Below, piece by piece: positions 40,238 through 60,592 of a stretch of 64,000 bases of DNA. The stretch is from the NCBI RefSeq assembly GCF_056712565.1, contig NZ_CM160072.1, one strand, 5' to 3'. The notes under the pieces are model-generated. The model was given only the letters and a program-made list of their open reading frames with translations, was not told the DNA's origin and searched no databases. Every line of letters begins with the position of its first letter. Positions within the stretch are counted from its first letter, which is position 1. The position numbers were made by a program, and so were the translations under genes.

Positions 40238-40783
40238 TTATTTTTTCTTGCCGCTGGAACGAGGACCTTTCTTTGCTGCCTCCTGCGGTACATCAGATTT
40301 TGTAGGTTTAGTGTTTTCTATTGAGGGTTTAACTGGTTGATGCTGCTCCACGGACTTCAGCGTTTCATCAGTGACATCCATACAGGATGCGCTGATTGAC
40401 GTATCAAGGTTAACCACCGGGAATGTCTGTGAAGGCGCGTTTTCAGCCTGCAGTGTCGGTTGTGCAGCAGGCACTTCAGGTTGAGGTTCTGCGACGCCGG
40501 CGGTCACTTTAGAGTGAATAATCTGCTCGATATGCTGCGCGGTGCGGGCGATCACCTTATGGGCATACACCTCGCCAACCCGGCTTGCCGCGCTGATGGC
40601 TGCCGCTACCGCCGCGTTAATTGCGCCCACTTCCCCTTCCAGCTTCACGGTCACCATCCCGCCGCCTTTCGTCAATTCATAGCCTACCAGACTAACGTTA
40701 GCGGATTTCATTGCGGCATCGGCGGCTTCTACCGCCGCAGACATCCCGACGGTTTCGATTAAGCCTAAACTTTTCCCAGACAT
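40238..40783 (-). CDS. BMC-H shell protein (PduA/EutM fold) with ~90-aa Pro/Lys-rich C-terminal extension
   Basis: MSGKSLGLIETVGMSAAVEAADAAMKSANVSLVGYELTKGGGMVTVKLEGEVGAINAAV... then a low-complexity tail; start at internal Met preferred over ORF-track start. Confidence 0.8.
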   Translation of the reverse strand: MSGKSLGLIETVGMSAAVEAADAAMKSANVSLVGYELTKGGGMVTVKLEGEVGAINAAVAAAISAASRVGEVYAHKVIARTAQHIEQIIHSKVTAGVAEPQPEVPAAQPTLQAENAPSQTFPVVNLDTSISASCMDVTDETLKSVEQHQPVKPSIENTKPTKSDVPQEAAKKGPRSSGKKK

Positions 40784-40827
40784 AAATTTCTCCTGTAATA
40801 AATTCAACTGTGCTGCGCGTCGTCGGC

Positions 40828-41979
40828 TTAACGTCCAACGTCTTCGTATAATAGCGCCGCTTTGTCCGTAACTTCCCACGGAAAGCTGTCGCGACCAAAG
40901 TGACCATAGCAGGCTGTTTTACGATAGCGGGGGACCAGCAGATCAAGCGTAGTAATGATGCCGAACACGCTAAGATCGAAATGGCTGTTAACGCCTCTCA
41001 GCAACGCTTCAGATGACACTGTTTGTGTACCGAAGGTGTTAATCCTGACGGAAACAGGGCGGGGCAGGCCGATGGCCCATCCCAACTGGACTTCACAGCG
41101 TGAGGCAAGCCCAGCGGCGACGATGTTTTTCGCCACATAGCGAGCAGCGTAGGCGGCGGAACGATCGACTTTCGACGGATCTTTGCCTGAAAACGCGCCG
41201 CCGCCATGGCAAGCCGCGCCGCCATAGGTATCAACAATAATTTTACGCCCCGTTAGCCCGCAGTCACCCACCGGCCCGCCAATCACAAAACTGCCTGCAG
41301 GGTTCACCAGAAAGCGGGTTTGTGGTGTGAGCCAGTGCGAAGGCATCACAGGTTTAACAATTTCTTCGATGACCGCTTCCCGTAGCGCGTCCAGAGAAAC
41401 GTCAGGGCTGTGTTGGGTAGACACCACAACGGTATCTACTGAATGAACACGATTATCCTGATAGCGCAGGGTAACCTGGCTTTTGGCATCAGGGAGTAAA
41501 AATGGTAACCGTTGGGATTTACGCAACTGCGCCTGGCGCTCCATCAGACGATGGGCGTATACCAGCGTGGCGGGCATCAGTTCCGACGTTTCATCACAGG
41601 CGTAACCGAAGGTGATGCCCTGATCGCCCGCCCCCAGTTCTTCCATCGAGTGGCCGCGAATGCCTTCAGCAATATTGGCGGACTGTTTGCCAAGGATATT
41701 TAATACACAGCAGGTATTGCCATCAAACCCCAATCGCGAATGGTCGTAACCAATCTCTTTTATGGTGTTGCGGACAATCTTCTCAATATCCACGGCGGCA
41801 TGGGTAGATATTTCTCCGGCAACAATAGTGGCACCAGTTTTCACCAAGCATTCACAGGCAACCTTACCCCACGGGTCCTGTAGGAGTATCGCATCCAAAA
41901 TGGCATCAGAAATTTGGTCCGCCATTTTATCGGGATGCCCTTCGGCAACGGATTCGGAGGTAAACAGGTAATCGTTCAA
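40828..41979 (-). CDS. S-adenosylmethionine synthetase paralog (MetK family) within the microcompartment locus
   Basis: 383-aa ORF with MetK signatures [71 protein letters not shown]. Confidence 0.9.
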
Positions 41980-42107
41980 AGCGAGCCCACTTGTTTGGGA
42001 AGTTTATTCCTATCTTAGGATAGGAACCTGACAAGTGGGCGTAAACTATCTTGCGGGCGTGTTGGACTATTTTGCTTTCATTATCGGGCCAATGCAAAAT
42101 CACGCCA

Positions 42108-43163
42108 TCACCGTGTAATTCCCGGGGACACGACTTTTCGATAATCAGAGGGGGTCATGCCAGTATCTTTTTTGAAGATGCGGCAAAAATAGTTTGAATC
42201 CTGGTATGCCAGTTCCAGCGCAATGGTATTTACTTGTAAGTCACTGAACCGCAATAACGATTTGGCGATAGTAATTTTACGCGTGGCAATATAGTTCGAA
42301 AACCCGAACCCGGTAATTTTCTTAAAGGTACGGCTCAAATAGCAGGCACTGACAAACGATTTTGCTGCCACGTCATCGAGCGTCAAGTTTCTGAGAATAT
42401 TTTTCTCAATATGGAATTTCGCTCGTTCGATAAAATCGATATTGCCTGTATAGCCTTTTAATGCGTAATCAAACAGCTCTTCGCTAATGGTCAGCAGGCT
42501 GATCATGATGCGGAAATAGCGGCTTTCCATCATGCCATACTGGTTGATGTCTTTGATCAGCGCGGCGACTTTACGGTTAGTCGGCATTAACTTTTCCCCT
42601 TTGGCGGTCATATACTGGCTAACTATTTCCAGAAAATCGATCACGTCTTTGCGCTTATCCTCTTCTATCATATCCACCGGACAGGCACCGTTGAGCGTGT
42701 CAAAAATAAAGTTGTGCCACTGGGTGTAATCGCAATCGTCTATCATGGCGAACACTTTCTGTTTTAGGGCGCGGGATTTTTCATTTTCTCCTTCGTCGAA
42801 TGCTAGGGTTTTTTTGATGGTGTCGGTCAAGATACATTTTTTCACTGGTTTGAGCAGATAATCATCCACTTTAAGGTTGTACATGCTGCGTACTATATCA
42901 AAGTCATCATTGGCCGTGATTACGATGATTTTAGTATCGCTGTTTTTTTTCTTCAGATATTCAATCACCTGTTTACCGTTCGGCAACGGAATATTAATGT
43001 CCACTAAGATCATATCGATTTGACTCAGTTGGTCAATTAAGTGAATCGCTTTTTTACCGGTTGAGGCTTCATGGATCGCAGCGTTTTCCACACACTGGGA
43101 GATAATCTGCCGCAGGGATTCTAATTCGATGGGCTCATCTTCAACGATAACAATGGTAAACAT
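42108..43163 (-). CDS. Response regulator with CheY-like receiver and C-terminal AraC-type HTH (YesN-like)
   Basis: 351-aa ORF MFTIVIVEDEPIELESL...DMILVDINIPLPNGKQV... and C-terminal AraC HTH. Confidence 0.85.
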   Translation of the reverse strand: MFTIVIVEDEPIELESLRQIISQCVENAAIHEASTGKKAIHLIDQLSQIDMILVDINIPLPNGKQVIEYLKKKNSDTKIIVITANDDFDIVRSMYNLKVDDYLLKPVKKCILTDTIKKTLAFDEGENEKSRALKQKVFAMIDDCDYTQWHNFIFDTLNGACPVDMIEEDKRKDVIDFLEIVSQYMTAKGEKLMPTNRKVAALIKDINQYGMMESRYFRIMISLLTISEELFDYALKGYTGNIDFIERAKFHIEKNILRNLTLDDVAAKSFVSACYLSRTFKKITGFGFSNYIATRKITIAKSLLRFSDLQVNTIALELAYQDSNYFCRIFKKDTGMTPSDYRKVVSPGITR

Positions 43164-43179
43164 ATGTCCTTTTCCTGTA

Positions 43180-44442
43180 TCAGGCTTCCTGCATTGGGAA
43201 CCGAAGTTTAATGGTTGTACCCATCCTGGGTTTGTTAGGGCTCATTATTTCCAAGCCATAGCTCTCGCCAAATAACAACTTCAATCTATTTTTTATGTTG
43301 TTAATGCCAATACTGCCTTTTTGCAATTTTTGGTCGCCTGATAAAATGCGATTAATGGTATCTGGTGCGATGCCGTCGCCATTGTCAGTGACTTCAATAA
43401 TCACGTTCAGGCCATCGTCCGTGGCACGGATCAGCAGATGACTATTGCTATCCCTTGGCTCCACTACGTAGTTAAAGAAGTTTTCCACCAGCGGTTGCAG
43501 GATCAAAAACGGGCAGACTACATCCAGATATTTTTCCGGGATATCGCACAGGTAATCGAAACGGTCTCTCATACGCACTTTTTGGATCGACATATAGTTG
43601 TTGACGTAATTTATTTCATTACGCAGAGTAATCAGGCCGTGACTATTTTTACGTAACAAATAGCGCATCATGTCAGAGAAATCGTGCACCATTGTTTCGG
43701 TACGCTGCGCATCTTCAAGAAAAGCTAACCGGCCAATGGTATTTAATACGTTAAATAAAAAGTGTGGATTTATCTGATAAGAGAGCGCTTTAAATTCAGC
43801 TTCATGTAGTGAGCGTTCTATCTCTACACGTTTTCTTAACTCATTAGCCAGTGCAAGATCCTTTTTACGAAGTTCGCGTTGGATATTATTGGTGTGCGCT
43901 TGTTCGACCAGATAAGACGATACGTGTAGTAACGTCGAGGCAGTAGACTCAAAACGCTCATACGGCATGCGACGTGTATTCTGGTGCAAATTAATTAACC
44001 AAGGATTATCTTTCCAGACGTCATTATTATTCAGAATATAGGAAATGCTCTGTTCTTTCTCTTCTTCGACTTTTACCTGACCGGAAATAAAAGCACCGAG
44101 ATAATGATCGTTAATCATGATTGGGACAGCGAATTCGACAAAACCGCAGTGGCAGCGATAAACCACCGGTTTGCGAGCGTGCATCGCGGCACGGCCACCA
44201 GCGTTGTCGCTTTCATAACAGTGGTGCGCCAGTGTCGGGTTGAGACGCGAACGCATGCAGAAGTCTGAAAAACCGCTGGGCTTAGTGACCGGGATACCAT
44301 TCTCATCCACAACCACGAGCGCGATCATCATTGATTTTGAAAAGTTGTCCTGCAGGGTCTGAAGGCGTTTTACATCCAAAAACTCATTTAATTTGTATTT
44401 ATTCTTCATACTTTCAGCCTGCATTTTTAAAAACATAATCAT
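43180..44442 (-). CDS. Sensor histidine kinase with N-terminal PocR-like small-molecule-binding domain (cytoplasmic, YesM/LytS-type core)
   Basis: 420-aa ORF; Cys/His-rich N-terminal domain ([22 protein letters not shown]...[14 protein letters not shown]), H-box [18 protein letters not shown]-terminal ATPase; no TM segments noted. Confidence 0.8.
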
Positions 44443-44501
44443 ATATTTATAAATAATTTGTCGCGAAAAAATTGAAATGGATCACAGCAACAAAAACAGC
44501 T

Positions 44502-44651
44502 CCGGCTCTGAAAGTAATGCTTCGGTTATTTGCAAGGGATACTCCTTTTCAAACCTTGCTGAACCAGTGCAGATACACAGGGAAACGTATACCAGAACTG
44601 CCACAATACAAACGCCAGTTACTGGCGATACGAATGGAATGACGAGGCAGT
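44502..44651. repeat. Copy 2 of the inverted repeat (see 37099-37266); lies in the upstream region of the PocR kinase operon and abuts the group II intron 3' end
   Basis: Same alignment as copy 1; contains the perfect palindrome cgccagt-t-actggcg. Confidence 0.6.
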
Positions 44652-44713
44652 CTGTCAGAAAGCCCCACATGAACGATCACCACCTACATAGGAGGTGTTT
44701 TAAAATTGATCGA

Positions 44714-46515
44714 GTAGGAGGCGGGATCACTCCCGCCGTCCTCTCACACCACCGTACATGCGGCTCCGCATACGGCGGTTCATGTTAACACTGGAACTGC
44801 CTCTGCTGTTCCAGCAGTGATATCAGACCCTGCCTGCTGAACCACGCATTCTTTATCGCCTGATTCATATGGCTTGACTCTGAGTTCCACCATGGCCCGT
44901 GGTTGTTGTACGCTGAGATCATCGCCCTGTCCTTACTCAGTCCTGCTCTTTGCAGGTTCTTTGCCCGGGTTAGCGGTCTCTTCCACTGCCGCTACAACAA
45001 GCAACGCAGTTTCCGTTTGATCCAGCCATCCAGCTCCTCCAGCACTCCTCTGACCTCCGTCAGCCTGAAGTAGCTTATCCATCCACACAGCACTGGTGTC
45101 AGAGCATTGATTGTCGCTTTCACTGATTTGCTCCGGTTTCCCGTCGTCAGACTGTGGACTTTCTCCTTCAGCCTGTTCACGCTCGTCAGGGCTATCTTCA
45201 GCTTCGCCTGTTTGTGCCATGTCACACTGTACCCGAGGAACTTCCGATCCCACGGGCGCGCCACCGCGCTCTTCTTCTCATTCACCTTCAGTTTGTTCTC
45301 CACGAACGCCCTGATGTTCTTCAGCAGATGGTCGCCCGCTTTCCGGCTGCTTACGTAGATGTTGCAGTCGTCTGCGTAGCGGCAGAAGCTGTGTCCACGA
45401 CGCTCCAGTTCTTTATCCAGTTCATCCAGCAGGATGTTCGACAGTAACGGCGACAGTGGGCCGCCCTGCAGCATGCCCGCCTGCCGTTTCTCCCTTTGCC
45501 CGTCTTTAACCATTTCCGCTTTCAGGTAGCGGCGTATCAGTCACAGCACCCGCCTGTCCTTTATCGTTCTGGCCAGACGCGTCATCAGGAGTCTGTGATC
45601 CACCCGGTCGAAGAACTTCTCCAGATCCATATCCACCACCCACCGTTTGCCACCCCGTATGTAACGCTGTGCCTGTTGCACCGCCTGCTGGATAAGCCTG
45701 TCCACCACCGTCGGGATGCCTGAGGTTCTCACGCCGCCATCCGGCTTCGGGATATCCATCCGGCGTATTGTCCGCGGCTGGTAGTTTCCGTCAATCAATG
45801 CCTGCCTGACGCTGCGCCAGTTCTTCTTCAGCCACGGTTTCAACTCCGCCACGCTGAGGTTATCCACCCCCGCCGTGCCTTTGTTTTCCACCACGCGCTG
45901 ATAAGCCAGCATCAGGTTTTCTCTCGTTATCACCGCTTCCATCGTCAGCGGCACTTCCGCTTTCGTTTGCCCACCCGCCGCCGTGCTGATTTCAGCGCCA
46001 TCATGCAGCCCTGACGGATACTGTCCGTCTCCTCTGCCGCTGGTCGCAGTGGCCTGCGCTTGTGCTTCATTAATCATCATCGGGTTCGGATGTCCTAATC
46101 ACAGTTAATCATGTTCGGCCCTTCATGCTGCCGGTTTTGCAGCACTACTACGGCGTCGGCTGACTTCTGCCGCCCCATCCCGGCGCCTCACGGCGCCGGT
46201 AGCACACTGGCAGGGCGACAGATCTCCCGGGGTAATTCACGCGACTTTCCTGCTTATGCCTGTCGGCTTTACGTCACAGCGTTCCGTGTGAGTATCGGGC
46301 TTTGGTGATTAGTGCCACCTTACCCTGCTGCGCCGCCTTAACCGCTTCCTGTTCGTCAGGCCAGCATTTTGCATCCAGCTTCCTTCAGATTTCACCTCGC
46401 GATGAACACCCTTGCCTTCCGCTAACACTTCCCCTCACCGGGTGTGTGGAGGACTTTCACCTCTTAGTCGTTCTTCTGCCACCACAGTTGAAGAACAGCG
46501 CCAGTCACGGCGCAC
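44714..46515 (-). mobile_element. Group II intron (bacterial class C-like: inserted just downstream of an intrinsic terminator)
   Basis: Minus-strand 5' end GTGCG at 46511-46515, six nt after the terminator U-tract; domain V-like hairpin (GAACCGCCGTATGCGGAGCCGCATGTACGG) and domain VI-like hairpin near 44715-44780; RT ORF inside; 3' boundary approximate. Confidence 0.7.
44992..45942 (-). pseudogene. Intron-encoded reverse transcriptase/maturase interrupted by in-frame stop codons
   Basis: RT motifs (GVDNLSV, QGGPLSPLLSNILLDELD, FCRYADDCNIYV) and X-domain (CGWISYFRL); in-frame TGA at 45541-45543 and TAG at 44992-44994 after which the frame still reads RQWKRPLTRAKNLQ. Confidence 0.7.
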
Positions 46516-46525
46516 ATAACAAAAA

Positions 46526-46548
46526 GCCAGCAGGCAGACACTGCTGGC
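46526..46548 (-). terminator. Rho-independent terminator of the upstream membrane-protein gene; insertion target of the intron
   Basis: gccagcag-gcagaca-ctgctggc hairpin flanked by A5 and T5. Confidence 0.55.
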
Positions 46549-46565
46549 TTTTTGTTATGGCGGGA

Positions 46566-47471
46566 TTAAAACAGGGGAACCAAGGTAAATAATCCAATGG
46601 TCGCCAACAGATTAATCATCGTGGTCATAATGGTGATGACCATCGCCGGCGGGTCAATATGTGTATCGCCGTGGATCAGGAAGATACGCGACATCAGTTC
46701 ACCCAATATCGCGCAAATTATGCCAACGATAGCAGCCCAAATCAGGCTACCTGATGGCACCGCTACCAACGCGGCAGGCAGCGAAATATGATGTGACACC
46801 GGTACCTGAGTATTGAAATGCAGGAAAATCAGTGAGAACGCGGAAATACCAAACGCCAGCAGCGCGCCGTTGCCGCCAAACTTCAGGCCTAAAAAGCCTG
46901 CCATCAAGCCAATACCCAAGCCCAGCACGGAAAGCTGCGGAATGCGGCTATGGTAAGGTATCCAGCACTTATCCTGCGGCGGATAGCAGTGACGAATTCC
47001 CTGCTCCGGTTTTCCAAACAGGCCAGTTTTACCGAAAACCAGACGCGAGACCACGCCAGAAATCACCACGGTTAGTGCCACGGTATCGGTCCAAGCATTG
47101 CCGGACGGGAAGGCCGGAATCTGGTTCAACCCCCAGGCGATGATGTAACCAACCGCCCCAAAAACCCCGCCTACCAGCAGCACATCGTAAGCCGCCAGAC
47201 CGCTCAACCCGGCAGTGATATCACGCCCGGAACCCAGCTTGCCTTTCTTCGCTGCATACGCCGTCGCCGCAACCCCAGCGGCAAAGCCGCCGGTGTGCGG
47301 GCCAAACAGTCCAAACGGAAAAGTAATAAAGTCCGATGATGCTCCGGTAATAATTTGCACTACCGTCATGGCGATAACCAGAAGCCCAACGAATTCAAAC
47401 GCCGCCAGCGCGCCAACAGCCGCACCAAATATGCCGCCGCCGAAGGCAACTACAATATCTAAGCTATTCAT
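46566..47471 (-). CDS. Polytopic membrane protein, probable transporter (family not recognised; no NPA motifs, so not a GlpF/PduF-type channel)
   Basis: 301-aa Gly/Ala-rich hydrophobic ORF directly downstream of the activase gene. Confidence 0.55.
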   Translation of the reverse strand: MNSLDIVVAFGGGIFGAAVGALAAFEFVGLLVIAMTVVQIITGASSDFITFPFGLFGPHTGGFAAGVAATAYAAKKGKLGSGRDITAGLSGLAAYDVLLVGGVFGAVGYIIAWGLNQIPAFPSGNAWTDTVALTVVISGVVSRLVFGKTGLFGKPEQGIRHCYPPQDKCWIPYHSRIPQLSVLGLGIGLMAGFLGLKFGGNGALLAFGISAFSLIFLHFNTQVPVSHHISLPAALVAVPSGSLIWAAIVGIICAILGELMSRIFLIHGDTHIDPPAMVITIMTTMINLLATIGLFTLVPLF

Positions 47472-47607
47472 CTAGCTTACCTCTGTAATTAAATCAAATG
47501 ACAATATAAGTAATGCAGATTGCTCTATATTTTTAAAATTGAAATAGTATTCATGCGTAACAAATAAACAAGCGCAGCATTTTTTCGCACTCTTATTACA
47601 TCTTTTA

Positions 47608-48525
47608 TTAACCGCCGATATGGCAGTTAAAACCTAAGGATTCAACCATTGCTTTTAACTCTGCCATTTGGGCTTCTTCGATACTTTTTGTATCGCCCAT
47701 CGGATACTGGCGACCAAGCAGATTATATTTATTTTCACCGAAGCTGTGATAAGGCAATAAGTGAATGGTATCGACGTTCTGCATCAGGCGGGCGAACTCC
47801 GCAATATTATGGATTTCCTGCGAATTGTCATTCACTCCTGGGATCACAGGAATACGCACAACCACTTTGGTTAAAAAGGAGATGCGCAGCAGATTCTCCA
47901 GAATCACTCTGTTATTCACGCCGGTGTTGCGCTCATGGATTTCCGGATCGATGGCTTTAATATCGGTCAGAGCAAGATCGACATAGGGAAATATCTCATC
48001 AATCACCGCTTTGGTGGTGAAGCCGCTTGTTTCAATAGCGGTGTGCCAGCCTTTGGCTTTACAGGCTTTAAGCAGCTCGCGGGCAAATTCCGGCTGCGCC
48101 AGCGGTTCACCACCGGACAGGGTAATCCCGCCGCCTGAACGCCGGTATAAATTCTCTTCTTTTTCCAGTTCGCGCATCACTGCCGTTACCGACATACGCT
48201 TGCCCTTCATTTCCAGCGCACGGGTAGGGCAAATCTCAGTACATTTCCCACACTGAATACAGCGGTCGCGATTGATAAACCAGGCATTAGTAGTGGAAAG
48301 AGCCTGTTGTGGGCAAGCATCAATACATTTTCCACAGCGGATGCAATCATTCTTTTTAAATAATAACTCTGGGCTGTGACGTTGTGATTCAGGATTACTA
48401 CACCATTTGCAGGACAGCGGGCAGCCTTTAAAAAAAGGAATGGTTCGAATGCCTGGACCATCATGCAAAGAATAGCGTTGAATATTAAATATGACGCCTT
48501 CGGTTTCGTACTCAACTTTATTCAT
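47608..48525 (-). CDS. Glycyl-radical enzyme activating enzyme (radical SAM, with two ferredoxin-like 4Fe-4S motifs)
   Basis: 305-aa ORF with CPLSCKWCSNPE radical-SAM motif and CIRCGKCIDACP / CIQCGKCTEICP clusters. Confidence 0.9.
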   Translation of the reverse strand: MNKVEYETEGVIFNIQRYSLHDGPGIRTIPFFKGCPLSCKWCSNPESQRHSPELLFKKNDCIRCGKCIDACPQQALSTTNAWFINRDRCIQCGKCTEICPTRALEMKGKRMSVTAVMRELEKEENLYRRSGGGITLSGGEPLAQPEFARELLKACKAKGWHTAIETSGFTTKAVIDEIFPYVDLALTDIKAIDPEIHERNTGVNNRVILENLLRISFLTKVVVRIPVIPGVNDNSQEIHNIAEFARLMQNVDTIHLLPYHSFGENKYNLLGRQYPMGDTKSIEEAQMAELKAMVESLGFNCHIGG

Positions 48526-51234: not shown

Positions 51235-51810
51235 TTAATGAATAATGCTAGTGCCCATTTGAGTAATAAAGTGACGTAATATTGCTGGATGCCCCATCCA
51301 GGTAGTCGCGGTTATTAAATTACCATCCACAATGGCTTCATCATCTGCGGCAGTGACCCACTGGCCACCCGCCATTTCCACTTCCGGTTTTACCGTAAAA
51401 TATCCCGTCAGTTTCCGGCCTTTTAATACCCCAGCAGCGGCCAGAATTTGTGGGCCATGACAAATTGCAGCAACAGGTAATGTTAAATTCATCGCGTAAT
51501 GCACGATATCCAATACTGACTTATTTAATCGCAAGTATTCCGATGAACGCCCACCAGAAATATAAACACCACTATATTCCTGTAACCTTATGTCATCAAA
51601 TGATGCAGTTAATCTAAAAAGATGTCCGGGTTTTTCGGTGTAGGTCTGATCACCTTCAAAATCATGAATCGCGGTTTTAATAAACTCGCCGGTACGTTTT
51701 CCCGGACACACTACATCCACTCTGAAACCTAACATGTTTAATGCCTGCCATGGCACCATGACTTCATAGTCTTCAGAGAAATCGCCTGTGATAAGTAATA
51801 TCTTCTTCAT
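51235..51810 (-). CDS. DJ-1/PfpI-family protein (class I glutamine amidotransferase-like)
   Basis: Start at internal MKKILLITGDFSEDYEV (191 aa); nucleophile-elbow motif VAAICHGPQILAAAGVL. Confidence 0.75.
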   Translation of the reverse strand: MKKILLITGDFSEDYEVMVPWQALNMLGFRVDVVCPGKRTGEFIKTAIHDFEGDQTYTEKPGHLFRLTASFDDIRLQEYSGVYISGGRSSEYLRLNKSVLDIVHYAMNLTLPVAAICHGPQILAAAGVLKGRKLTGYFTVKPEVEMAGGQWVTAADDEAIVDGNLITATTWMGHPAILRHFITQMGTSIIH

Positions 51811-51820: not shown

Positions 51821-52120
51821 TCAAAACTGGTTATCGTCTTCCTCAATGATTCGCATGGCTTCATGCACCGCCGCGACTTCGCCAAAAATGGCCAATGTGG
51901 TGATATGCTGAGGGCAACTGCCAAAGATTTCTGATACCACCACATTGGCGCTTTTACTGGCTACGTCGGCATAAAAATAGAGATCCGGAACCGGCAGTAT
52001 TAACAAACCAATGGCGTCGATGCGAATCAAATCCAAACGCGAACGAAACTCCCCGGGCATACGCCGTTTCAACATAGCCAAAATATCCGGGGTCGGTGCG
52101 TTTATGATTCGTTTTTTCAT
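51821..52120 (-). CDS. BMC shell protein, EutS/PduU-type (circularly permuted BMC domain)
   Basis: 99-aa ORF ...IGLLILPVPDLYFYADVASKSANVVVSEIFG...TLAIFGEVAAVHEAM... resembling EutS/PduU. Confidence 0.65.
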   Translation of the reverse strand: MKKRIINAPTPDILAMLKRRMPGEFRSRLDLIRIDAIGLLILPVPDLYFYADVASKSANVVVSEIFGSCPQHITTLAIFGEVAAVHEAMRIIEEDDNQF

Positions 52121-52143: not shown

Positions 52144-53661
52144 TTAGCGAATATTCAGCGCTTCAACCATTACACAGCGACGACGGCGTGCAAACGAACG
52201 CGCTGACGTAAGTCCCTCGCCGGTCGGTCCGGCAATCGTAAAGGTGGCATGCCCTTCACCGCCCACCCCCAGCCCTGCATAAGAGGGACCATTTTTAACA
52301 AAGATGGTGGTCTGGATCAGGCGCGCCATTTTGGTCAGCTTTTCGACGTTGGTGGAGTGCATAACCGCGGTATGACGATTGCCGTGCTCCACTTTCACCG
52401 CCAGCTCAATGGCTTCATCAACATTGTCTACGCGCACCACCGGCAGGACCGGCATCATCAGCTCATGCACCACAAACGGATGTGTTTTCTCAGCCTCAAT
52501 TAAGATGACTTTGATATCGTCGCCAACCTGGATTCCCAGTTGTTGCAGGATATAGCGCGCATCTTTGCCGACAAAGGCGGTATTCGGCCCAGTGCCTTTT
52601 TCATTAAGCACCAACGATTGCAGTTGTTGACTTAACTTCTTATCGCACAACAGATAGGCACCGCTTTTCTTCATGCAGTGAATCAGATAGTCCGCTACCT
52701 GGTTCACAACAATCACCTCTTTTTCCGCCACGCACGGCAGGTTGTTGTCGAAGCTACAGCCCTTAATGATGTCGCGGGCTGCTTTTTCGATATCCGCCGT
52801 TTCATCTACCACAGCTGGCGGGTTACCTGCGCCTGCACCAATCGCTTTTTTACCTGATGACATCACGGTTTTCACGATGGCTGGACCGCCAGTCGCTACC
52901 AGCATGTTGATACGTGGGTCGTTGATCAGGACGTTGGTATTGTCGATGGACGGTTTGGTCACCGTTACCACCATGTTCGCCGGTGCGCCCAACTGGGCAA
53001 GCTTGTTGTTGATCAGCTCAACCGCGTACAGCGACACTTTGCGCGAGCGCGGATGTGGACTGAACACCACAGTGTTGCCTGCCGCCAGCATGCCTATGCT
53101 GTTGTTGATAATGGTTTCGGTCGGGTTAGTCGTTGGTGTAATCGAACCAATCACTCCGAACGCAGAGTATTCGATCAACGTTAAACCCCCGTCTCCGGAA
53201 ACCGCGCTGGTGGTCAGATCTTCGATACCTGGCGTTTTCAGCGCTGCGACGCGGTTTTTGATCAGTTTGTCCTCGTAATTCCCCATGCCGGTCTCTTCCA
53301 CCGCCATACGGGAAAGGGCACACAGCACATCTTCCTGCAGGAAGACATCGCGAATGCCATTGATAAACGAGGCGCGGTCTTGCATAGAACAGTGGCGATA
53401 CTGTACCTGTGCCAAGACGGCGGCGGAAATCGCCTCATCCATGGTATCGAATGCTCCAGTGCTAGCATTCGCTACCTTCGCTACCTGAGAGATCGCACTG
53501 GCGTCGCGCACGGAAGAGTGCTGCGCCAACGCCTTAGCGACAATTTCATCCAACCCGTCGACCCGCGCTGCTTCTGACGTGGCGGGAGCTTCATCCGGTG
53601 TTGCTTTGGTGAATTTGCTCAGGATGGTCGAGACAGCCTGAGCGATTTCAATATCATTCAT
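52144..53661 (-). CDS. CoA-acylating aldehyde dehydrogenase (PduP/EutE family)
   Basis: 505-aa ORF with aldehyde dehydrogenase core including catalytic Cys region NNLPCVAEKE. Confidence 0.9.
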   Translation of the reverse strand: MNDIEIAQAVSTILSKFTKATPDEAPATSEAARVDGLDEIVAKALAQHSSVRDASAISQVAKVANASTGAFDTMDEAISAAVLAQVQYRHCSMQDRASFINGIRDVFLQEDVLCALSRMAVEETGMGNYEDKLIKNRVAALKTPGIEDLTTSAVSGDGGLTLIEYSAFGVIGSITPTTNPTETIINNSIGMLAAGNTVVFSPHPRSRKVSLYAVELINNKLAQLGAPANMVVTVTKPSIDNTNVLINDPRINMLVATGGPAIVKTVMSSGKKAIGAGAGNPPAVVDETADIEKAARDIIKGCSFDNNLPCVAEKEVIVVNQVADYLIHCMKKSGAYLLCDKKLSQQLQSLVLNEKGTGPNTAFVGKDARYILQQLGIQVGDDIKVILIEAEKTHPFVVHELMMPVLPVVRVDNVDEAIELAVKVEHGNRHTAVMHSTNVEKLTKMARLIQTTIFVKNGPSYAGLGVGGEGHATFTIAGPTGEGLTSARSFARRRRCVMVEALNIR

Positions 53662-53721
53662 CTTTAAATTCCTTACTACTCTTCATCTACCGACCGCGCC
53701 GCGTGCATCGTCATCAGATGC

Positions 53722-54507
53722 TTAGATATATGGCGTCGTGGTGGATTTAATTTCCACCGGATCTAACGTGGAGAGCAGTTGTAGACCGACTTCACGCGCG
53801 GCAATCACCGCCTGACGTACTGCACCGGAATCACCGGAGAAGGTGAAGATCACTTCGTTACTAAAGCTGGTGCCTTGCGACGGGCTGGCATAACCCACCG
53901 GGTCAATCACGGCGGATTTCGCCGCAGCGTCGGCAATCACTAGGCCAATCGCCGCAGGCGAGGCACAGGTCATCCCGAAGGATTTACCAATCGGCGCACC
54001 CAGCGCTTTATTCAGCGCGTAGCTGGCACGAGCGGTGTACTGGAATTCAAGATGTCCGGCTGACGAGCCATAAACGTCACCCATGGTGCGTTCAATTTCA
54101 GACAGCGCCACTTCAACCGCACGCCTGACGTCGGAAACATCAGACGCACCAAAAATAATTAAGCAACCGTGTCCGCCACCTCCTTCGGTATCGCGGGCCA
54201 GCTCAATAGAAATAATTTCGCTGTTGGTTGCTTTAATCGCTTCGTCAGCCGCAAAAATTTGCGGGCCTGCGCCAGTACGTGCGCCAAGAATACCGATAGA
54301 GCGATATTTCTTGTCGATATTCATGACTTCATGCAATTGATTATCAACATTGGCAATCACTAGGCCGATAGTGTGGCCCAACGCAGTGCCGACAAATTCC
54401 GTAATACCGCAACCAGCGAAATTTGCTGCTGTTTTAGCTTCCGGTGAGATATCGGTTTGTTTATTCATTACGTCAGATATAATCTGCTCAACAAGATTAT
54501 CTCTCAT
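53722..54507 (-). CDS. BMC-T shell protein (tandem BMC domains, PduB-like)
   Basis: 261-aa ORF with two BMC-like repeats. Confidence 0.75.
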   Translation of the reverse strand: MRDNLVEQIISDVMNKQTDISPEAKTAANFAGCGITEFVGTALGHTIGLVIANVDNQLHEVMNIDKKYRSIGILGARTGAGPQIFAADEAIKATNSEIISIELARDTEGGGGHGCLIIFGASDVSDVRRAVEVALSEIERTMGDVYGSSAGHLEFQYTARASYALNKALGAPIGKSFGMTCASPAAIGLVIADAAAKSAVIDPVGYASPSQGTSFSNEVIFTFSGDSGAVRQAVIAAREVGLQLLSTLDPVEIKSTTTPYI

Positions 54508-54528
54508 GATCAGTATCCTTTATTGTTA

Positions 54529-54810
54529 TTAACCGATAGCCTTCGGTAGAATTTTTTCCACCTCAATGTGTGGGCGTGGAATAACATGTACGGAGACCAG
54601 TTCTCCCACTTTACTCGCAGCAGCGGAGCCCGCATCTGTCGCGGCTTTCACTGCGCCAACGTCGCCGCGAACCATCACAGTCACCAAGCCGGAGCCGATT
54701 TTTTCATAACCCACTAGGGTCACGTTGGCAGATTTCACCATGGTATCTGCAGCTTCAATTGCAGAAACCAGACCTTTCGTTTCAACCATTCCTAATGCTT
54801 CTTGTTGCAT
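54529..54810 (-). CDS. BMC-H shell protein (PduA/EutM-like)
   Basis: Start at internal [57 protein letters not shown] (93 aa). Confidence 0.85.
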
Positions 54811-55094
54811 AACGACCTCAATATTTCCGATAGAAAGAAAACGTGCACAGAGGAATAGCAATCTACGGATTCACCCATGTGCATTAATTATTTAATTATC
54901 ATAATGCTAAGGTTATTCAGACAAAATGTTTTGCGCGTCAGTGGGACTATCTTGCTTTTGCATTCCCGCAATTGACAATAAAATCCACCCGAGGTTTGTA
55001 ATAAAAGATCTGCGTTTAAATTTCCTTGCAAAATAGCCCCGCTCTGAATAGCAATCATAATTACTGTTAAAACTGTCGTATTTTTGCCAATTAG

Positions 55095-56291
55095 TTATGC
55101 CGTGCGGGCAATCTCCGCTGCATCTATAGCAATCATTTTTTCTTCATTGGTTGGGATGACCGCAATCTTCGTGGTGTCGGTTTTAGAAATCAGTCCGCTA
55201 CGTCCGCCGAACAGCTGCTGGTTACGTTCTTTATCCAGTTCCAATCCCAGCGCCTGAAGGCGTTGCACGGTAAGTTCTCGAATTAACGCCGAGTTTTCGC
55301 CAATTCCACCGGTGAAAATCAGCGCATCGAAGCGTTTAAGCGAGGTCACGTGGCCGCCGATATGTCGTGCGAGACGATGTACTAACACGTCGATGGCTAA
55401 CGCTGCCCGTTCGTGGCCCTCATCACGCGCCTGCTGAAGGGTGCGGCAATCGCTGGATAAGCCGGAAATCCCCATTAGGCCGGACTGGTTATTGAGCATT
55501 TTGTACAGCGTGTCGAACGTTTGACCTGTGCGTTTCGCCAGATATGCGACGACACCAAAATCAAGATCCCCGCAGCGCGTGCCCATTACCAGCCCTTCCA
55601 GCGGGGTCATACCCATTGAGGTGTCAATGCTCGTGCCGTTTTGCACCGCACATAGCGATGAACCGTTGCCCAAGTGGGCAATCACGATGCCATGATCCGC
55701 CGGGTCGAGATCTAGTGATGCAAGCGCCTCGGCGGCAATATAGCGGTGAGATGTTCCGTGAAAGCCGTAACGTCGCACCATATAATCTTGCTGGAACTCC
55801 AGCGGGATCGCATAGGTGTAAGCAGCCGGAGACAAGGTCTGGTGGAACGCAGTATCGAACACCGCAATATGCGGCAACGCGGGCAACAGAGCCCGAGCCG
55901 CTTCAATACCAATCAGGTTGGCAGGGTTATGCAAAGGGGCCAGCACCGACAGCGCGCGGACTTTTTCGATCACATCATCGGTAACCAGTACTGATCTTTT
56001 GAAGTCGCTGCCGCCATGAGCCACGCGGTGCCCAACGGCGTTGATGGCTTCCAACAGTTGCTGTTCGTCGAGCTTCGCGAAGAGCACTTTGAGCGCATGC
56101 TGATGGCTGGCGTCATCCAGCGCGACAGTGGATTTATGGCCGTCTCGGTCTTTAAACGTTATGACAGCATGATCAATACCCAGTCGTTCCGCTAGGCCCG
56201 ACAGCAACGGCTGATCTGCATCCTGAGGAATGACGGAGAATTTCATTGATGAGGAACCACAATTAATCACTAATACACAAGCTAAAGACAT
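55095..56291 (-). CDS. Acetate/propionate kinase (AckA/PduW/TdcD family)
   Basis: Start at internal MSLACVLVINCGSSSMKF (398 aa); ASKHA motifs FHGTSHRY and FTGGIGENS. Confidence 0.85.
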   Translation of the reverse strand: MSLACVLVINCGSSSMKFSVIPQDADQPLLSGLAERLGIDHAVITFKDRDGHKSTVALDDASHQHALKVLFAKLDEQQLLEAINAVGHRVAHGGSDFKRSVLVTDDVIEKVRALSVLAPLHNPANLIGIEAARALLPALPHIAVFDTAFHQTLSPAAYTYAIPLEFQQDYMVRRYGFHGTSHRYIAAEALASLDLDPADHGIVIAHLGNGSSLCAVQNGTSIDTSMGMTPLEGLVMGTRCGDLDFGVVAYLAKRTGQTFDTLYKMLNNQSGLMGISGLSSDCRTLQQARDEGHERAALAIDVLVHRLARHIGGHVTSLKRFDALIFTGGIGENSALIRELTVQRLQALGLELDKERNQQLFGGRSGLISKTDTTKIAVIPTNEEKMIAIDAAEIARTA

Positions 56292-56319
56292 GATGCCCCC
56301 TGAAATGGACTGCAAAAAA

Positions 56320-56817
56320 TTAACGGGTTGTTGTGAGGGGATAACGCAGAACGCTAAACTGCGCCATCGCCTGGCGGGCGATGAGCATATCTTCCTCAAC
56401 ACTGCCGCCGCTGATGCCGATGCCGCCTAGTAAGCGCCTGCCCGACCAGCAGGGAAAACCACCGCCGAAGCAGCAGATATCTTTTTCTTTCTCAAGGCCG
56501 TACAAATCACCACCCGGCTGTACCAGCGTTGCCAGTTCGTGAGTTGGCATTTTGAGAGCTACCGCGGTCCAGGCCTTTTGTGGTGCCAAGGTATGGCTGA
56601 CCAGCAGGGCGTTATCCATGCTGAAGAAAAAACGCTGCTGACCGCAGGCATCCACTAGGCTAAAAACGATCGATACATTGCTGGACTGTGCTATTTCCCG
56701 GACCAACTTTGCCAGCAGTTCACTGTCCTCCAGGCTCAGCGACATCCGGAGTTCCGGTAACTGCGTGGCAATAGCCTCGTTAATCCAGTTGTCGAGTGAA
56801 GCCTCATTCGCAGACAT
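56320..56817 (-). CDS. GlcG/PduO-C-terminal-like (DUF336, heme-binding-type) protein
   Basis: 165-aa ORF with C-terminal GGIGISGGSVEEDMLIARQAM motif. Confidence 0.65.
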   Translation of the reverse strand: MSANEASLDNWINEAIATQLPELRMSLSLEDSELLAKLVREIAQSSNVSIVFSLVDACGQQRFFFSMDNALLVSHTLAPQKAWTAVALKMPTHELATLVQPGGDLYGLEKEKDICCFGGGFPCWSGRRLLGGIGISGGSVEEDMLIARQAMAQFSVLRYPLTTTR

Positions 56818-56844
56818 AAGTATTCCTCAGCGTACGCGCCGCTA

Positions 56845-57114
56845 TTAACCGTTAAGTTCGAGCGAGTCGACGATACCCACCACGGCAGCGTCAATCACCG
56901 AGTGATCTTTGTTGTTGCTCATACGCGCCGAACTGCCGGTGGTGATGATCACAATCTCTCCATTGCCCGCGCCGACAGTATCAACTGCCACCTGGGCATG
57001 AACAGTCGGCTGATAGTTTTCATCGAGCCGCGCCACTATCAGCAGTTTTGAGCCATTCAGCGAGGCGTGTTTGGTGGTGGAAACCAATGCGCCAGTAACT
57101 TTAGCGAGGTACAT
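56845..57114 (-). CDS. BMC-P vertex (pentamer) protein, EutN/PduN/CcmL family
   Basis: 89-aa ORF MYLAKVTGALVSTTKHASLNGSKLLIV...GAGNGEIVII... Confidence 0.85.
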   Translation of the reverse strand: MYLAKVTGALVSTTKHASLNGSKLLIVARLDENYQPTVHAQVAVDTVGAGNGEIVIITTGSSARMSNNKDHSVIDAAVVGIVDSLELNG

Positions 57115-57125
57115 ATTTCCTCCGG

Positions 57126-57830
57126 TTAACCATGGATAACAGTGAGATTACGCCGCTGGATTTCATCTCTGGCAGCAGGGGTAATCAGCGTGTCGCTCTC
57201 AATGCGCAGCACTGTGCCAATGGTCAGTAGGCGGATATCGCTCTGGGTGATTAAACGTTTTTTACCGGCTACTGTCAGGGTGGATTGGCTTCCTTGCACC
57301 GACTTGACATGGGCTGCACGTTTACCGAAAAGCGTAATGCCATAGCTCTCTAGGACCTGAGCGTAACCTTCCAGACAAGACAGCAGTGGCATCGGTAATT
57401 CGCTATCGACGCATTGTTGATGCAGCGTGGCGATAATCTGTTTACGGTGCTGTAACGTCTGAAATACAGTTTCACAGGCCAGATTATCGCGAATGCCCAG
57501 CGCAATTTTGCTCATGCTGTTGACAGAGAGCGCAGGCAGATAGAGCACCTCATAGTGAGGCGGCGATCTGTCAAATCCAGCACGAGAACCACGCTGAATT
57601 AGCGCATCCATGCAGACAGATTTCAGCGCCGACTGGCTGGCGCTGTGAGAAAAATTTACCCACAACTGATAACCCGCCAGCTCAAGCGCCTCAAGGCAGT
57701 TCAGCGTTTCCGGCAGCGAGGAGATATCCTCACCAGTCACCACTACGCAGACATTTTTCTGCGCGACGGATTGTGCCAACACTTCAGCGATGACCCGGTC
57801 CAGCAGTTGCGATAAGGTTTGATTGTCCAT
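57126..57830 (-). CDS. Hypothetical protein of the microcompartment operon (possible flavoprotein-like fold; unassigned)
   Basis: ORF track 241 aa; start at internal MDNQTLSQLL preferred (follows the EutJ-like stop); VCVVVTGEDISSL motif; family uncertain. Confidence 0.45.
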   Translation of the reverse strand: MDNQTLSQLLDRVIAEVLAQSVAQKNVCVVVTGEDISSLPETLNCLEALELAGYQLWVNFSHSASQSALKSVCMDALIQRGSRAGFDRSPPHYEVLYLPALSVNSMSKIALGIRDNLACETVFQTLQHRKQIIATLHQQCVDSELPMPLLSCLEGYAQVLESYGITLFGKRAAHVKSVQGSQSTLTVAGKKRLITQSDIRLLTIGTVLRIESDTLITPAARDEIQRRNLTVIHG

Positions 57831-57834
57831 TGAT

Positions 57835-58593
57835 TTACCCCTGGTCCGCATTCATGGCGATGCCTAATGGTGTGACCAATAGTGGCTCTGCCGAAGGAAT
57901 CACATTTTTACCGGTTTGTTTACTGAACACGTTGGCAAACTGGCTGAAGCTGCTCGCGCCACCTACCAAATAAATATTTTTTACCTGCTGGGTAGCGAAC
58001 CATCCCGACACCAAGCTGGCCATTTTCTGGGCCACCGGTAGCACCAGGGTAAAGACCTGCGCTTCCTGCCCGTTTTTTTTCATTTCTTCCGCCTCGGCAT
58101 AAGGCAAGCCCAGCGCGCCAGCGATCACCAACTTCATATGGCTTCCACCGGTGGGCTCATCGGCACTGAACGTCACTTTACCGCTTTTCAAAATGCTCAT
58201 GCCGGTGGTGCCTCCTCCGACATCCACCACCGCCCCGTTTTTAATATTCAGCGCGCTGGCAGCGGCTACCGGTTCATCTAGTACTTGGGTCACGATAAAA
58301 CCCGCCAACTCCACTACGTTGACGATCACTTTTGTGTTGCCTTCAGAGATCCCCGGTGGGACTGCGATCGCCGCGCGCTCCAGCGTGCAGCCCTGTTTCT
58401 GTTCAAGAATTTGTTTGAGACGTGCTACTACCCGGCTGGCGGTCAGGTAATCCACCACCACGCCGTCTTTCACCACATTGGAGGGATACATTACCCCTGC
58501 CACCGGCTGGTTATCTTCATCCAGCACCACGATTGCGATATTGGCGGTACCGAGATCCCCCCCACCTTCAACGCGCCGGAGTAGGGCCGACAT
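57835..58593 (-). CDS. EutJ-like actin/Hsp70-fold chaperone; N-terminus apparently displaced by a -1 frameshift in a C7/G7 homopolymer
   Basis: 252-aa ORF with DLGTANIAIVV and VDVGGGTTG motifs; an upstream ATG at 58653-58655 reads MANSPENCRFHELAALIDSGECRPYSGALKVG in another frame and would join in-frame if the run at 58557-58563 were 8 nt. Confidence 0.7.
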   Translation of the reverse strand: MSALLRRVEGGGDLGTANIAIVVLDEDNQPVAGVMYPSNVVKDGVVVDYLTASRVVARLKQILEQKQGCTLERAAIAVPPGISEGNTKVIVNVVELAGFIVTQVLDEPVAAASALNIKNGAVVDVGGGTTGMSILKSGKVTFSADEPTGGSHMKLVIAGALGLPYAEAEEMKKNGQEAQVFTLVLPVAQKMASLVSGWFATQQVKNIYLVGGASSFSQFANVFSKQTGKNVIPSAEPLLVTPLGIAMNADQG

Positions 58594-58647
58594 TCGCCGC
58601 TGTCAATCAGCGCGGCCAATTCGTGAAATCGGCAGTTTTCGGGGCTG

Positions 58648-59334
58648 TTAGCCATGGCGCGCAGCCTGTTTTATGCCGCGAACGGTATCGCCATTACGCA
58701 GACCGACGCCGTTAGCTTCTTCCATATCAATATGCAGTTCCAGCACTGCATCCGCCGTGACGCGTACCACTACATGGCTGAGCACACCACCGCGCGGACC
58801 GTTTGTTTGCACATCGATTTCCATTCCGTCATGCAGGCCGTGCAGTTCGGCTTCTTCGGGCGAGATATGGATATGGCGCCAGGCGACAATCATGCCGTTG
58901 TGTTTCACCACCCGCCCTTTCGGACCGATGATTTCAATGCCCGGCGAATCCAGCAGATCCCCCGACATGCGCACCGGAGCTTTAGTGCCCAGCGCAAAGC
59001 CGTCGGCCACAGAGATTTCCACCTGCGTGGCATTACGCAGTGGCCCTAACACGCGCACTTTGTTGAGCTCGCCTTTTGGCCCGCGCAGCGTCACCATCTC
59101 TTCGGCGGCATACTGACCGGGCTGTTTCAACGCTTTAGAACGGGTTAGCGTAGAGCCGTAGCCAAACAGAATGTCCATATCTTCACGGCACAGATGAACA
59201 TGGCGGTTGGACACGCCCACCGGAATATTCAGCGCGACAGGCGCGGCAGCAGGCGCTGCCGTTTTTTTACTGGTGGCAAGTTCCTGCAAAATTTGTTGGG
59301 TAATCCACTCGGCTTGTTGTTCGGTGTAATTCAT
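58648..59334 (-). CDS. PduL-type phosphotransacylase (phosphate acyl-transferase)
   Basis: 228-aa ORF with PduL signatures NRHVHL and WRHIHISPEEA. Confidence 0.85.
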   Translation of the reverse strand: MNYTEQQAEWITQQILQELATSKKTAAPAAAPVALNIPVGVSNRHVHLCREDMDILFGYGSTLTRSKALKQPGQYAAEEMVTLRGPKGELNKVRVLGPLRNATQVEISVADGFALGTKAPVRMSGDLLDSPGIEIIGPKGRVVKHNGMIVAWRHIHISPEEAELHGLHDGMEIDVQTNGPRGGVLSHVVVRVTADAVLELHIDMEEANGVGLRNGDTVRGIKQAARHG

Positions 59335-59473
59335 AATGGGTACGACCTGATTATTGGGTTATCTTATGGGTAATGGGCGTCTAACGATCAGGATAGGGAG
59401 TAACGACGCCCGGTTTTTGTTTATCAGCAGGACTTTTTTGACTGCTTCACGGAGGCTGAACAAAGTTATCCAG

Positions 59474-60592
59474 CTAGCCGGTAATCAGGTCGATCAACCC
59501 TTCGACATCATGCGTCGTCACCTGCCGCGGGTTCGACGCGGTACAACCGTCGGCCAGCGTCGAATTCACCAGTGCGCTGCGCAACTCGATGATTTTTGCA
59601 CGGTCGATGCCCAGTTCGCTGAGAGTGACGGGGATGCAGAAATGGCGATTGATCTGGCGGATCTCCTGAGTCATCAGCGCGATGGCCTGCTCCGGTACCG
59701 CATGGTCAATGCCTATGATTTGCGCGCAACGGTGATAGCGATCGCGGGTTTCAGTGCTGGCCCGTTTGCTGTTGAAGTCGATGACAATCGGCAGCAGCAT
59801 GGCGTTAATTTTGCCATGAGGAATATGCAGCATCCCGCCGATGGCGTGTGCCATGCCGTGTACCAACCCCAGCCCGGCGGAGTTAAATGCCATGCCTGCC
59901 ATACAGGAGGCATTGTGCATGTGGGTGCGCGCCGCAATGTCTTTTTCGTCGTTAAACACCTGCGGCAGATAGCGCCAGGTCAACGCGATGGCTTTTTCCG
60001 CCAGCGCATCGCTAAAGTCATTTGAGCCAGTAGAGACAAAGGCTTCAATGGCATGGGTCAGCACGTCCATGCCGGTATCTACCGCGACATGACGCGGCGC
60101 GGTTAACACTAGGTTAGGATCGAGAATGGCGATTTCCGGCACCAGTTGCCCGGAGATCAACGGATATTTGCGGCCATTTTGCGGATCAGAGATGATCGCG
60201 TAGGACGTCACTTCAGAGCCGGATCCGCTGGTTGTGGGAATAGCAATGAGATCGATTTGATGATCTCCAAAATACTCTTCCAATGTGACTTTAATTCCTT
60301 TCGCAGCGTCCAGCGACGAGCCGCCGCCGAGGGCGATAATAACGTCGGGCTTAAAGGCTTTAAAACGCGCCGCGCCGGAAGTCAGAATATCAATATCTGG
60401 ATCCGGAGTAACCTCACCGAAAATGCATACCGATGCCTCAGGCATATGGCTTATTAAATAACGAGTTTTACCTGATGACATCATAAAATCATCGGTGACA
60501 ATACCGACTCGTTTATTATTAAATTGGCATAGAGAGGTTATTGCCTCTTCACCAAAATAAATTTTGGGGCACGAAAAATAATAGCGGGCCAT
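59474..60592 (-). CDS. Iron-containing alcohol dehydrogenase (PduQ/EutG-like); first gene of the operon
   Basis: 372-aa ORF with Fe-ADH motifs GGGSSLDAAK and His-rich metal site; 5' intergenic region upstream. Confidence 0.9.
   Translation of the reverse strand: MARYYFSCPKIYFGEEAITSLCQFNNKRVGIVTDDFMMSSGKTRYLISHMPEASVCIFGEVTPDPDIDILTSGAARFKAFKPDVIIALGGGSSLDAAKGIKVTLEEYFGDHQIDLIAIPTTSGSGSEVTSYAIISDPQNGRKYPLISGQLVPEIAILDPNLVLTAPRHVAVDTGMDVLTHAIEAFVSTGSNDFSDALAEKAIALTWRYLPQVFNDEKDIAARTHMHNASCMAGMAFNSAGLGLVHGMAHAIGGMLHIPHGKINAMLLPIVIDFNSKRASTETRDRYHRCAQIIGIDHAVPEQAIALMTQEIRQINRHFCIPVTLSELGIDRAKIIELRSALVNSTLADGCTASNPRQVTTHDVEGLIDLITG

Follow-up and report, generated by a model that had tools for sequence, protein, structure and literature searches.

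In this study, a stretch of 64,000 nucleotides from contig NZ_CM160072.1 of assembly GCF_056712565.1 (the whole stretch is hereafter termed the window) was analysed to identify a gene cluster on its minus strand, which extends from the start of grpA at 60592 to the stop of grpS at 40238. The cluster is almost certainly the grp (glycyl radical propanediol) locus of Escherichia coli, a GRM3-type glycyl radical enzyme (GRE) microcompartment for the B12-independent, anaerobic fermentation of 1,2-propanediol, and nothing of substance weighs against this identification. The locus is already known, being named in routine RefSeq annotation and genetically studied in extraintestinal pathogenic E. coli. 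An earlier reading of the same stretch, made from the letters before any database search (the sequence-only reading), had drawn the cluster with exactly these bounds and had left its substrate and its novelty undecided.

Many RefSeq E. coli chromosomes contain the 20,355 bases of 40238-60592 with 100% identity, and in them all genes of the stretch are named grpA to grpS. The type strain ATCC 11775, whose gene names were assigned by PGAP, is among these chromosomes. At least 80% of the stretch was present in 456 of 5,426 complete genomes. The cluster is not a chance pattern, because its genes are contiguous and co-oriented and its identity is at least 99% across hundreds of genomes. The window differed from ATCC 11775 by 2 mismatches over 29.8 kb and from strain ZJ3920 by 1 mismatch across its first 40.2 kb. 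All 19 grp open reading frames (ORFs) were intact in the window; compared with the RefSeq models, starts chosen by the longest ORF were too far upstream for grpS, grpL, grpG and grpH. Protein and RNA families were assigned using NCBIfam (TIGR and NF models with curated cut-offs), Pfam, Rfam and sequence matches to the Protein Data Bank (PDB), and RNAfold was used to analyse a hairpin.

The resemblance to grp of uropathogenic E. coli, which the sequence-only reading had pointed out, turned out to be literal. Identity to strain CFT073 (NC_004431.1, 4306029-4326385) was 99.84% over 21,157 aligned bases, with 31 substitutions. In the CFT073 locus (c45xx genes; J Bacteriol 202:e00017-20), all 19 grp genes recur with order and orientation unchanged, together with the same broken group II intron between grpO and grpP. 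Protein accessions are common to the window and CFT073 for GrpA, B, C, E, G, I, J, K, L, M, O, Q and S, including WP_000890295.1 for GrpM. The CFT073 RefSeq record flags grpH (positions 11812-12095 of the compared CFT073 stretch) as frameshifted by two extra single bases, opposite window positions 54660 and 54575, whereas grpH is intact in the window, and its product is identical to WP_001301171.1 of ATCC 11775 with zero mismatches in the gene against that record. The CFT073 frameshift may be genuine, or it may stem from an error in the sequencing behind the 2002 record.

Functional information on grp comes from CFT073. According to Lundin 2020 (cited in PMC13210347 and PMC11724981), the locus was genetically characterised for 1,2-propanediol fermentation; it consists of 21 co-oriented genes, five of which encode shell proteins, and fermentation of 1,2-propanediol via grp occurs in more than 10% of ECOR strains. 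The count of 21 genes corresponds to the 19 grp genes plus two reverse transcriptase (RT) fragments. Polyhedral organelles and the conversion of 1,2-propanediol to propionate and 1-propanol have likewise been reported for CFT073, as cited in these papers. Biochemical work published in 2025 (PMC11724981) showed that GrpP of CFT073 autophosphorylates and passes the phosphate to GrpQ, that grpP as well as grpQ is needed for anaerobic induction of the grp genes by 1,2-propanediol, and that GrpP/GrpQ also activate type 1 fimbriae via fimS on D-serine.

The signature enzyme GrpM carries the motif GCVEP at residues 432-436 (Cys433, Glu435) and the glycyl radical motif RVAGYSAQW at residues 822-830 (Gly825), and the earlier call of an 850-aa GRE was upheld on re-inspection of the catalytic Cys and glycyl motif. 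Its best solved relative is the GRM3-type 1,2-propanediol dehydratase of Raoultella planticola (9RCO-9RCR), with approximately 90% identity as judged by eye outside one insert, followed by the glycerol dehydratase of Clostridium butyricum (1R8W) and then the propanediol dehydratase of Roseburia inulinivorans (5I2A, hereafter RiDD). The alignment with 1R8W is gap-free over residues 1-586. Pocket residues His164, Ser282, Phe333, Cys433, Glu435, Asp447, Tyr702 and Gly825 of GrpM are conserved. Tyr339 and Ser642 of the glycerol dehydratase, an enzyme without a microcompartment, are replaced by Phe339 and Val704 in GrpM, which is encoded within a microcompartment locus; the two crystallised propanediol dehydratases have the same residues there (Phe344 and Val696 in RiDD). 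At every position checked, the GrpM pocket equals those of the R. planticola enzyme (9RCR) and RiDD (5I2A). LaMattina et al. 2016 are said to have described these two positions as forming a hydrophobic pocket for the methyl group of the substrate.

Crystals of the R. planticola enzyme (9RCO-9RCR) had 1,2-propanediol in the active site; neither glycerol nor 1,3-propanediol was bound in them, and the glycerol affinity was very low (PMC12756279). GrpM was counted as a 1,2-propanediol dehydratase of the GRM3 type because its active-site residues and its closest characterised relatives agree. The sequence-only reading had held that the substrate could not be settled from sequence; with the aligned pocket and the published structures, 1,2-propanediol is largely settled as the substrate. 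GrpM fell far below the curated cut-offs of the models for hydroxyproline (HypD) and sulfopropanediol dehydratases, pyruvate formate-lyase and CutC, and a glycerol enzyme was likewise rejected on a score under its curated cut-off.

Features pointing to encapsulation were found in several enzymes. Residues 587-649 of GrpM (GYPVGANPHTPAAKSSLNEQDIYDVVKRIIEQHGALDPAAIKNEVYRQLTSGSAAPVQSGTMS) are present neither in the C. butyricum glycerol dehydratase nor in the deposited R. planticola chain, and RiDD carries an insert at the same place. Two helix-like segments are predicted in this insert between linkers rich in Pro, Ser and Ala. It matches the described intramolecular encapsulation peptide of approximately 60 aa that is typical of GRM3/4/5 enzymes. 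The N-terminus of GrpM aligns from residue 1 and has no extension, which is the GRM3 arrangement with an internal insert. GrpJ has an N-terminal two-helix extension of approximately 60 aa, and its best solved relatives are the GRM3 aldehyde dehydrogenase (AldDH) structures 5JFL and 5JFN of Rhodopseudomonas palustris. In that enzyme, the first 85 residues, including a Strep-tag, were assigned to a two-helix encapsulation peptide (PMC5311937); the GrpJ extension is probably an equivalent peptide. The match of GrpB to its family model NF011652 begins at residue 37, and the preceding extension of approximately 36 aa is likewise a probable encapsulation peptide.

The remaining genes place the locus in the same class. 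The GRE and its cognate radical S-adenosylmethionine (SAM) activase are encoded beside microcompartment shell genes, the defining arrangement of GRM loci, and residues ~54-119 of GrpN match ferredoxin families, thereby forming the ferredoxin-like insert of GRM3 activases. The ordinary ancillary genes of GRM3 encode an acetate-type kinase, a peptidase, a flavoprotein, EutJ, a SAM synthetase, a two-component pair and a DUF336 protein, and PocR-domain regulators have been noted in this class (Axen et al. 2014, PMC4207490). These are represented here by GrpG, GrpL, GrpD, GrpC, GrpR, GrpP/GrpQ and GrpF, respectively. GRM3 loci of R. palustris BisB18 and R. planticola (Zarzycki 2017, PMC5311937; PMC12756279) share the same core of GRE, activase and AldDH in other hosts, and native GRM3 enzymes carry an internal insert as GrpM does. 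The deposited R. planticola chain, which lacks the 55-aa insert, appears to be a trimmed construct. The locus encodes an Fe-S shell protein of the GrpU type, and neither PduS nor PduT was found among the family matches. This is the pattern of 'GRM3b' (PMC6325248), in which PduS and PduT are usually absent; we infer that the locus may belong to this subtype, whose published definition (Ferlez 2019) rests also on locus arrangement and GRE phylogeny.

Related systems differ in definable ways. GRM5 loci, known from R. inulinivorans and Clostridium phytofermentans and acting on fucose and rhamnose, share the signature chemistry, the Phe/Val pocket positions and the place of the insert with GrpM, but they additionally encode a fuculose-phosphate aldolase and a lactaldehyde reductase, and PduS and PduT are always present (PMC6325248). 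None of the 19 grp products matched the families of fuculose-phosphate aldolase, lactaldehyde reductase, PduS or PduT. The B12-dependent Pdu system of Salmonella uses the same substrate, aldehyde intermediate and downstream enzymes (equivalents of PduP, PduL, PduW and PduQ); like grp, it has shell components of the PduB, PduU and PduN kinds and a regulator with a PocR sensory domain. Its signature enzyme is the adenosylcobalamin-dependent PduCDE, whereas grp employs a GRE and has no cobalamin recycling genes; its regulator is the one-component PocR, whereas grp encodes a PocR-domain histidine kinase with an AraC-type response regulator.

Five shell genes were found, namely grpH (BMC-H), grpS (extended BMC-H), grpI (BMC-T), grpK (permuted) and grpE (BMC-P). 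The sequence-only reading had counted six, but a tblastn search of the whole window, with the five shell proteins as queries, gave no sixth gene, and the published count, as given in PMC13210347 and PMC11724981 citing Lundin 2020, is also five. The BMC domain of GrpS is 49% identical to GrpH. GrpK matched PDB entry 4OLP, 'GrpU microcompartment shell protein', over its full length (E 1e-48) and retains the GSCPQ Fe-S motif; Fe-S binding by GrpU has been shown in homologues.

Most of the earlier parts list was borne out. Family models supported the activase, AldDH, PduL, acyl kinase, iron-containing alcohol dehydrogenase and EutJ-like chaperone, as well as the PocR-domain histidine kinase (PocR, His_kinase and HATPase_c in Pfam) with its AraC-type response regulator (a receiver domain, REC, and an AraC helix-turn-helix) and the SAM synthetase, DJ-1/PfpI and GlcG-like proteins (TIGR01034, TIGR01382 and PF03928). 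Every quoted motif was present, and the description of a complete aldehyde-sequestering metabolosome holds; grpO, grpD and a 1.8-kb intron remnant had been omitted. The PocR pair, SAM synthetase, DJ-1/PfpI and GlcG-like proteins had been called unusual additions, a label that fails because they are the published GRM3 accessory set (PMC4207490) and named grp genes. The alignment of the GRE that had been proposed as a check was run, giving a pocket like those of the crystallised 1,2-propanediol dehydratases rather than that of the glycerol dehydratase, with the CutC and HypD models below cut-off. Novelty, which had been left possible, is nil because the pocket residues and gene content are those of a characterised locus; the GrpM accession and gene order are likewise those of CFT073.

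The following course of events is proposed. The activase GrpN would use SAM, whose supply GrpR may top up, to generate the glycyl radical of GrpM at Gly825. The radical would move to Cys433, thereby allowing hydrogen abstraction from 1,2-propanediol, and elimination of the C2 hydroxyl with the participation of Glu435 and His164 would yield propionaldehyde. This toxic aldehyde would be held within a shell of GrpH, GrpS, GrpI, GrpK and GrpE, inside which GrpJ would convert it to propionyl-CoA and GrpA to 1-propanol, so that NAD+ and NADH are recycled. GrpB (PduL) would then form propionyl-phosphate and recycle CoA, and GrpG would produce propionate and ATP. The helical encapsulation peptides of GrpM (internal) and GrpJ (N-terminal) probably target both enzymes to the lumen, and GrpP/GrpQ would turn the genes on with 1,2-propanediol under anaerobiosis. 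Substrate specificity, the GRE structure with bound 1,2-propanediol and the AldDH mechanism have been shown in homologues, and we infer the roles of GrpR, GrpL, GrpF, GrpD, GrpC and GrpO.

Three other explanations of the locus were weighed. GrpM might be a B12-independent glycerol dehydratase, so that the organelle would handle 3-hydroxypropionaldehyde from glycerol; its 59% identity to 1R8W over aligned residues, together with the gap-free stretch of residues 1-586, outscores the match to the R. inulinivorans propanediol dehydratase. However, GrpM has Phe339 and Val704 in place of Tyr339 and Ser642, as in both propanediol dehydratases, and its ~90%-identical R. planticola relative contained no glycerol in crystals and gained only minor protease protection from glycerol at 1.5 M. 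The R. palustris GRM3 enzyme has been reported as exclusive for 1,2-propanediol, and the C. butyricum glycerol dehydratase has neither the encapsulation insert nor a microcompartment association, which leaves a glycerol-processing organelle extremely unlikely. We assign a negligible probability to a choline microcompartment (CutC, GRM1/GRM2) yielding trimethylamine. A GRM2 choline locus does exist on a pathogenicity island in E. coli strains such as 536, and GrpM matches a CutC model at E 3e-166, but its score with the CutC equivalog TIGR04394 is 555 bits against a cut-off of 1050 and CutC structures rank far below the diol dehydratases. In addition, a BMC-T gene is present here and absent from GRM2 loci, and GrpM has an internal insert and no N-terminal extension, whereas GRM1/GRM2 enzymes have N-terminal extensions.

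The locus could also be a decaying relic whose organelle is no longer made because its regulators are uncoupled or silenced by the intron lying between grpO and grpP. This would fit a degenerate group II intron inside the cluster directly past a strong terminator, a surrounding island full of pseudogenes, and the undetectable grp transcripts in aerobic LB culture (PMC11724981). It is nevertheless very improbable: none of the 19 grp ORFs is broken, the intron occupies an intergenic spacer and interrupts no gene, at least 99% identity is maintained in hundreds of genomes, and CFT073 with the same intron still induces grp anaerobically on 1,2-propanediol in a grpP/grpQ-dependent manner. The identification as a 1,2-propanediol microcompartment carries a few caveats. 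The functional evidence derives from the CFT073 locus and homologues, the present strain being known from its sequence, and the results of Lundin 2020 are taken second-hand from citing papers. The putative role of Phe339 and Val704 in determining selectivity is supported here by identity to the two propanediol-bound enzymes, and a full-text literature search on the corresponding RiDD residues gave only unrelated papers. The roles of GrpO, GrpD, GrpF, GrpL and GrpC are at the level of annotation, and GrpO gave zero matches in NCBIfam, Pfam and PDB sequences.

The features of the cluster are collected in Table 1. The product of grpA matches iron-containing alcohol dehydrogenase families (lactaldehyde reductase, EutG), with every score below the equivalog cut-off. 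GrpD, named 'flavoprotein GrpD' in RefSeq, also gives weak matches to TIGR02536 and TIGR04493, and GrpR aligns over its full length with solved structures of E. coli MetK (1FUG and 7LL3 among them).

Table 1. Genes and other features of the grp cluster, with positions in the window and the main supporting evidence
Feature	Position	Strand	Evidence
grpA, iron-containing alcohol dehydrogenase (1-propanol dehydrogenase, PduQ-like)	59474..60592	-	RefSeq name in identical locus
grpB, PduL-type phosphotransacylase	58648..59334	-	NF011652 phosphate propanoyltransferase, 257 bits vs cut-off 209
grpC, EutJ-family chaperone-like protein	57835..58593	-	TIGR02529 EutJ, 384 bits vs cut-off 152
grpD, flavoprotein-like, PduM/eut_hyp-like C-terminus	57126..57851	-	Pfam Flavoprotein PF02441, E 5e-6
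grpE, BMC-P pentameric vertex protein	56845..57114	-	CcmL/EutN family matches; RefSeq vertex protein GrpE
grpF, GlcG/HbpS-like (DUF336) protein	56320..56817	-	Pfam PF03928, E 3e-29
grpG, propionate kinase	55095..56291	-	NF009045, 694 bits vs cut-off 580
grpH, BMC-H hexameric shell protein, 93 aa, intact	54529..54810	-	EutM family, 129 bits
grpI, BMC-T tandem-domain shell protein, PduB type	53722..54507	-	NF011944 PduB, 423 bits vs cut-off 173
grpJ, CoA-acylating propionaldehyde dehydrogenase	52144..53661	-	NF011927, 732 bits
grpK, permuted BMC shell protein, GrpU type (EutS/PduU-like)	51821..52120	-	Pfam BMC partial match
grpL, DJ-1/PfpI family protein	51235..51810	-	TIGR01382, 153 bits vs cut-off 139
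grpM, glycyl radical enzyme, 850 aa	48634..51186	-	TIGR01774, 788 bits vs cut-off 678
grpN, radical-SAM activating enzyme, adjoins grpM downstream	47608..48525	-	TIGR02494, 415 bits vs cut-off 174
grpO, 301-aa hydrophobic membrane protein, RefSeq 'permease'	46566..47471	-	RefSeq name
Intrinsic-terminator hairpin directly 3' of grpO	46518..46556	-	RNAfold
Decayed group II intron between grpO and grpP	44708..46515	-	Rfam
grpP, cytoplasmic PocR-domain sensor histidine kinase	43180..44442	-	Pfam PocR (E 2e-44) + His_kinase + HATPase_c
grpQ, response regulator, AraC-type helix-turn-helix output	42108..43163	-	REC residues 1-130, AraC family residues 240-345
grpR, methionine adenosyltransferase (MetK paralogue), TTG start	40828..41979	-	TIGR01034, 588 bits
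grpS, BMC-H shell protein with low-complexity C-terminal extension of ~90 aa	40238..40783	-	BMC domain residues 1-90

The grpO terminator has the sequence AACAAAAAGCCAGCAG-TGTCTGC-CTGCTGGCTTTTTGTT. A simple terminator scan missed this minus-strand hairpin, which was clearly shown when RNAfold was applied to a 61-nt segment (-34.9 kcal/mol). The intron begins with GTGCG at 46515, which is 2 nt past the T-run of the terminator. Class C group II introns typically insert right after terminators. The element, 1.8 kb in length, matched Rfam families RF02001 (139.7 bits), RF01998 (73.8 bits) and RF00029 (48.5 bits), with domains D1-D4 at 46118-46406 and D5/D6 at 44709-44780. Its RT/maturase ORF is broken by two in-frame stops and, compared with the 82%-identical intact ltrA on plasmid NZ_CP100527.1, lacks approximately 29 residues, including the FRPGRS motif; the same RT fragments are found in CFT073. 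A synthetic intron-less query for an uninterrupted CFT073-type grpO-grpP junction matched none of the 5,426 E. coli genomes. Of the 31 substitutions that separate the window from CFT073, ten lie within 166 bp (44758-44923) in the 3' part of the intron, a clustering which hints that exchange or gene conversion with other intron copies could have occurred.

A divergent grp locus was found in strain PK5074 (NZ_CP072802.1, compared stretch 9767-28087), in which grpO is approximately 88% identical and the intron is absent. There, grpPQRS are inverted and convergent with grpA-O, and an IS1 element lies upstream of grpP. We consider it improbable, in a single estimate covering both ideas, that the intron has been co-opted rather than being inert and, separately, that GrpO is the founder of an undescribed diol-transporter family. 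A co-opted intron may, for example, shield grpPQRS, which encode the regulators and the SAM synthetase, from the structural operon, or may provide a promoter or an RNA-stability element for grpPQRS. The intron, the GrpO family and the two grpPQRS arrangements are minor leads only.

The island that carries grp is a mosaic (window positions 24400-40200 and 60600-64000), comprising a CP4-57-like module (cbtA/yeeU, antirestriction, DUF932), an integrase remnant and RND/TetR fragments. Just past grpS, at 37648-39881, the sequence holds a pseudogene for a truncated RND efflux permease, a gene of the TetR family and split fragments of the AraC family, which resemble what is left of an earlier cargo module of the island. 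The same island occupies two chromosomal sites, adjoining cadC in the window and yicL/nlpA in CFT073. No tRNA genes were found within the window.

The value of this analysis is that a candidate was taken off the novelty list and its parts list was corrected. Co-option of the intron, if true, would let GrpP/GrpQ be expressed apart from the organelle, and this independence would agree with the additional role in controlling type 1 fimbriae that has been published for the pair. The grp locus lets extraintestinal pathogenic E. coli draw ATP from 1,2-propanediol, which arises from the fermentation of fucose and rhamnose in the gut, without B12, and its regulators also feed into the control of fimbrial virulence.

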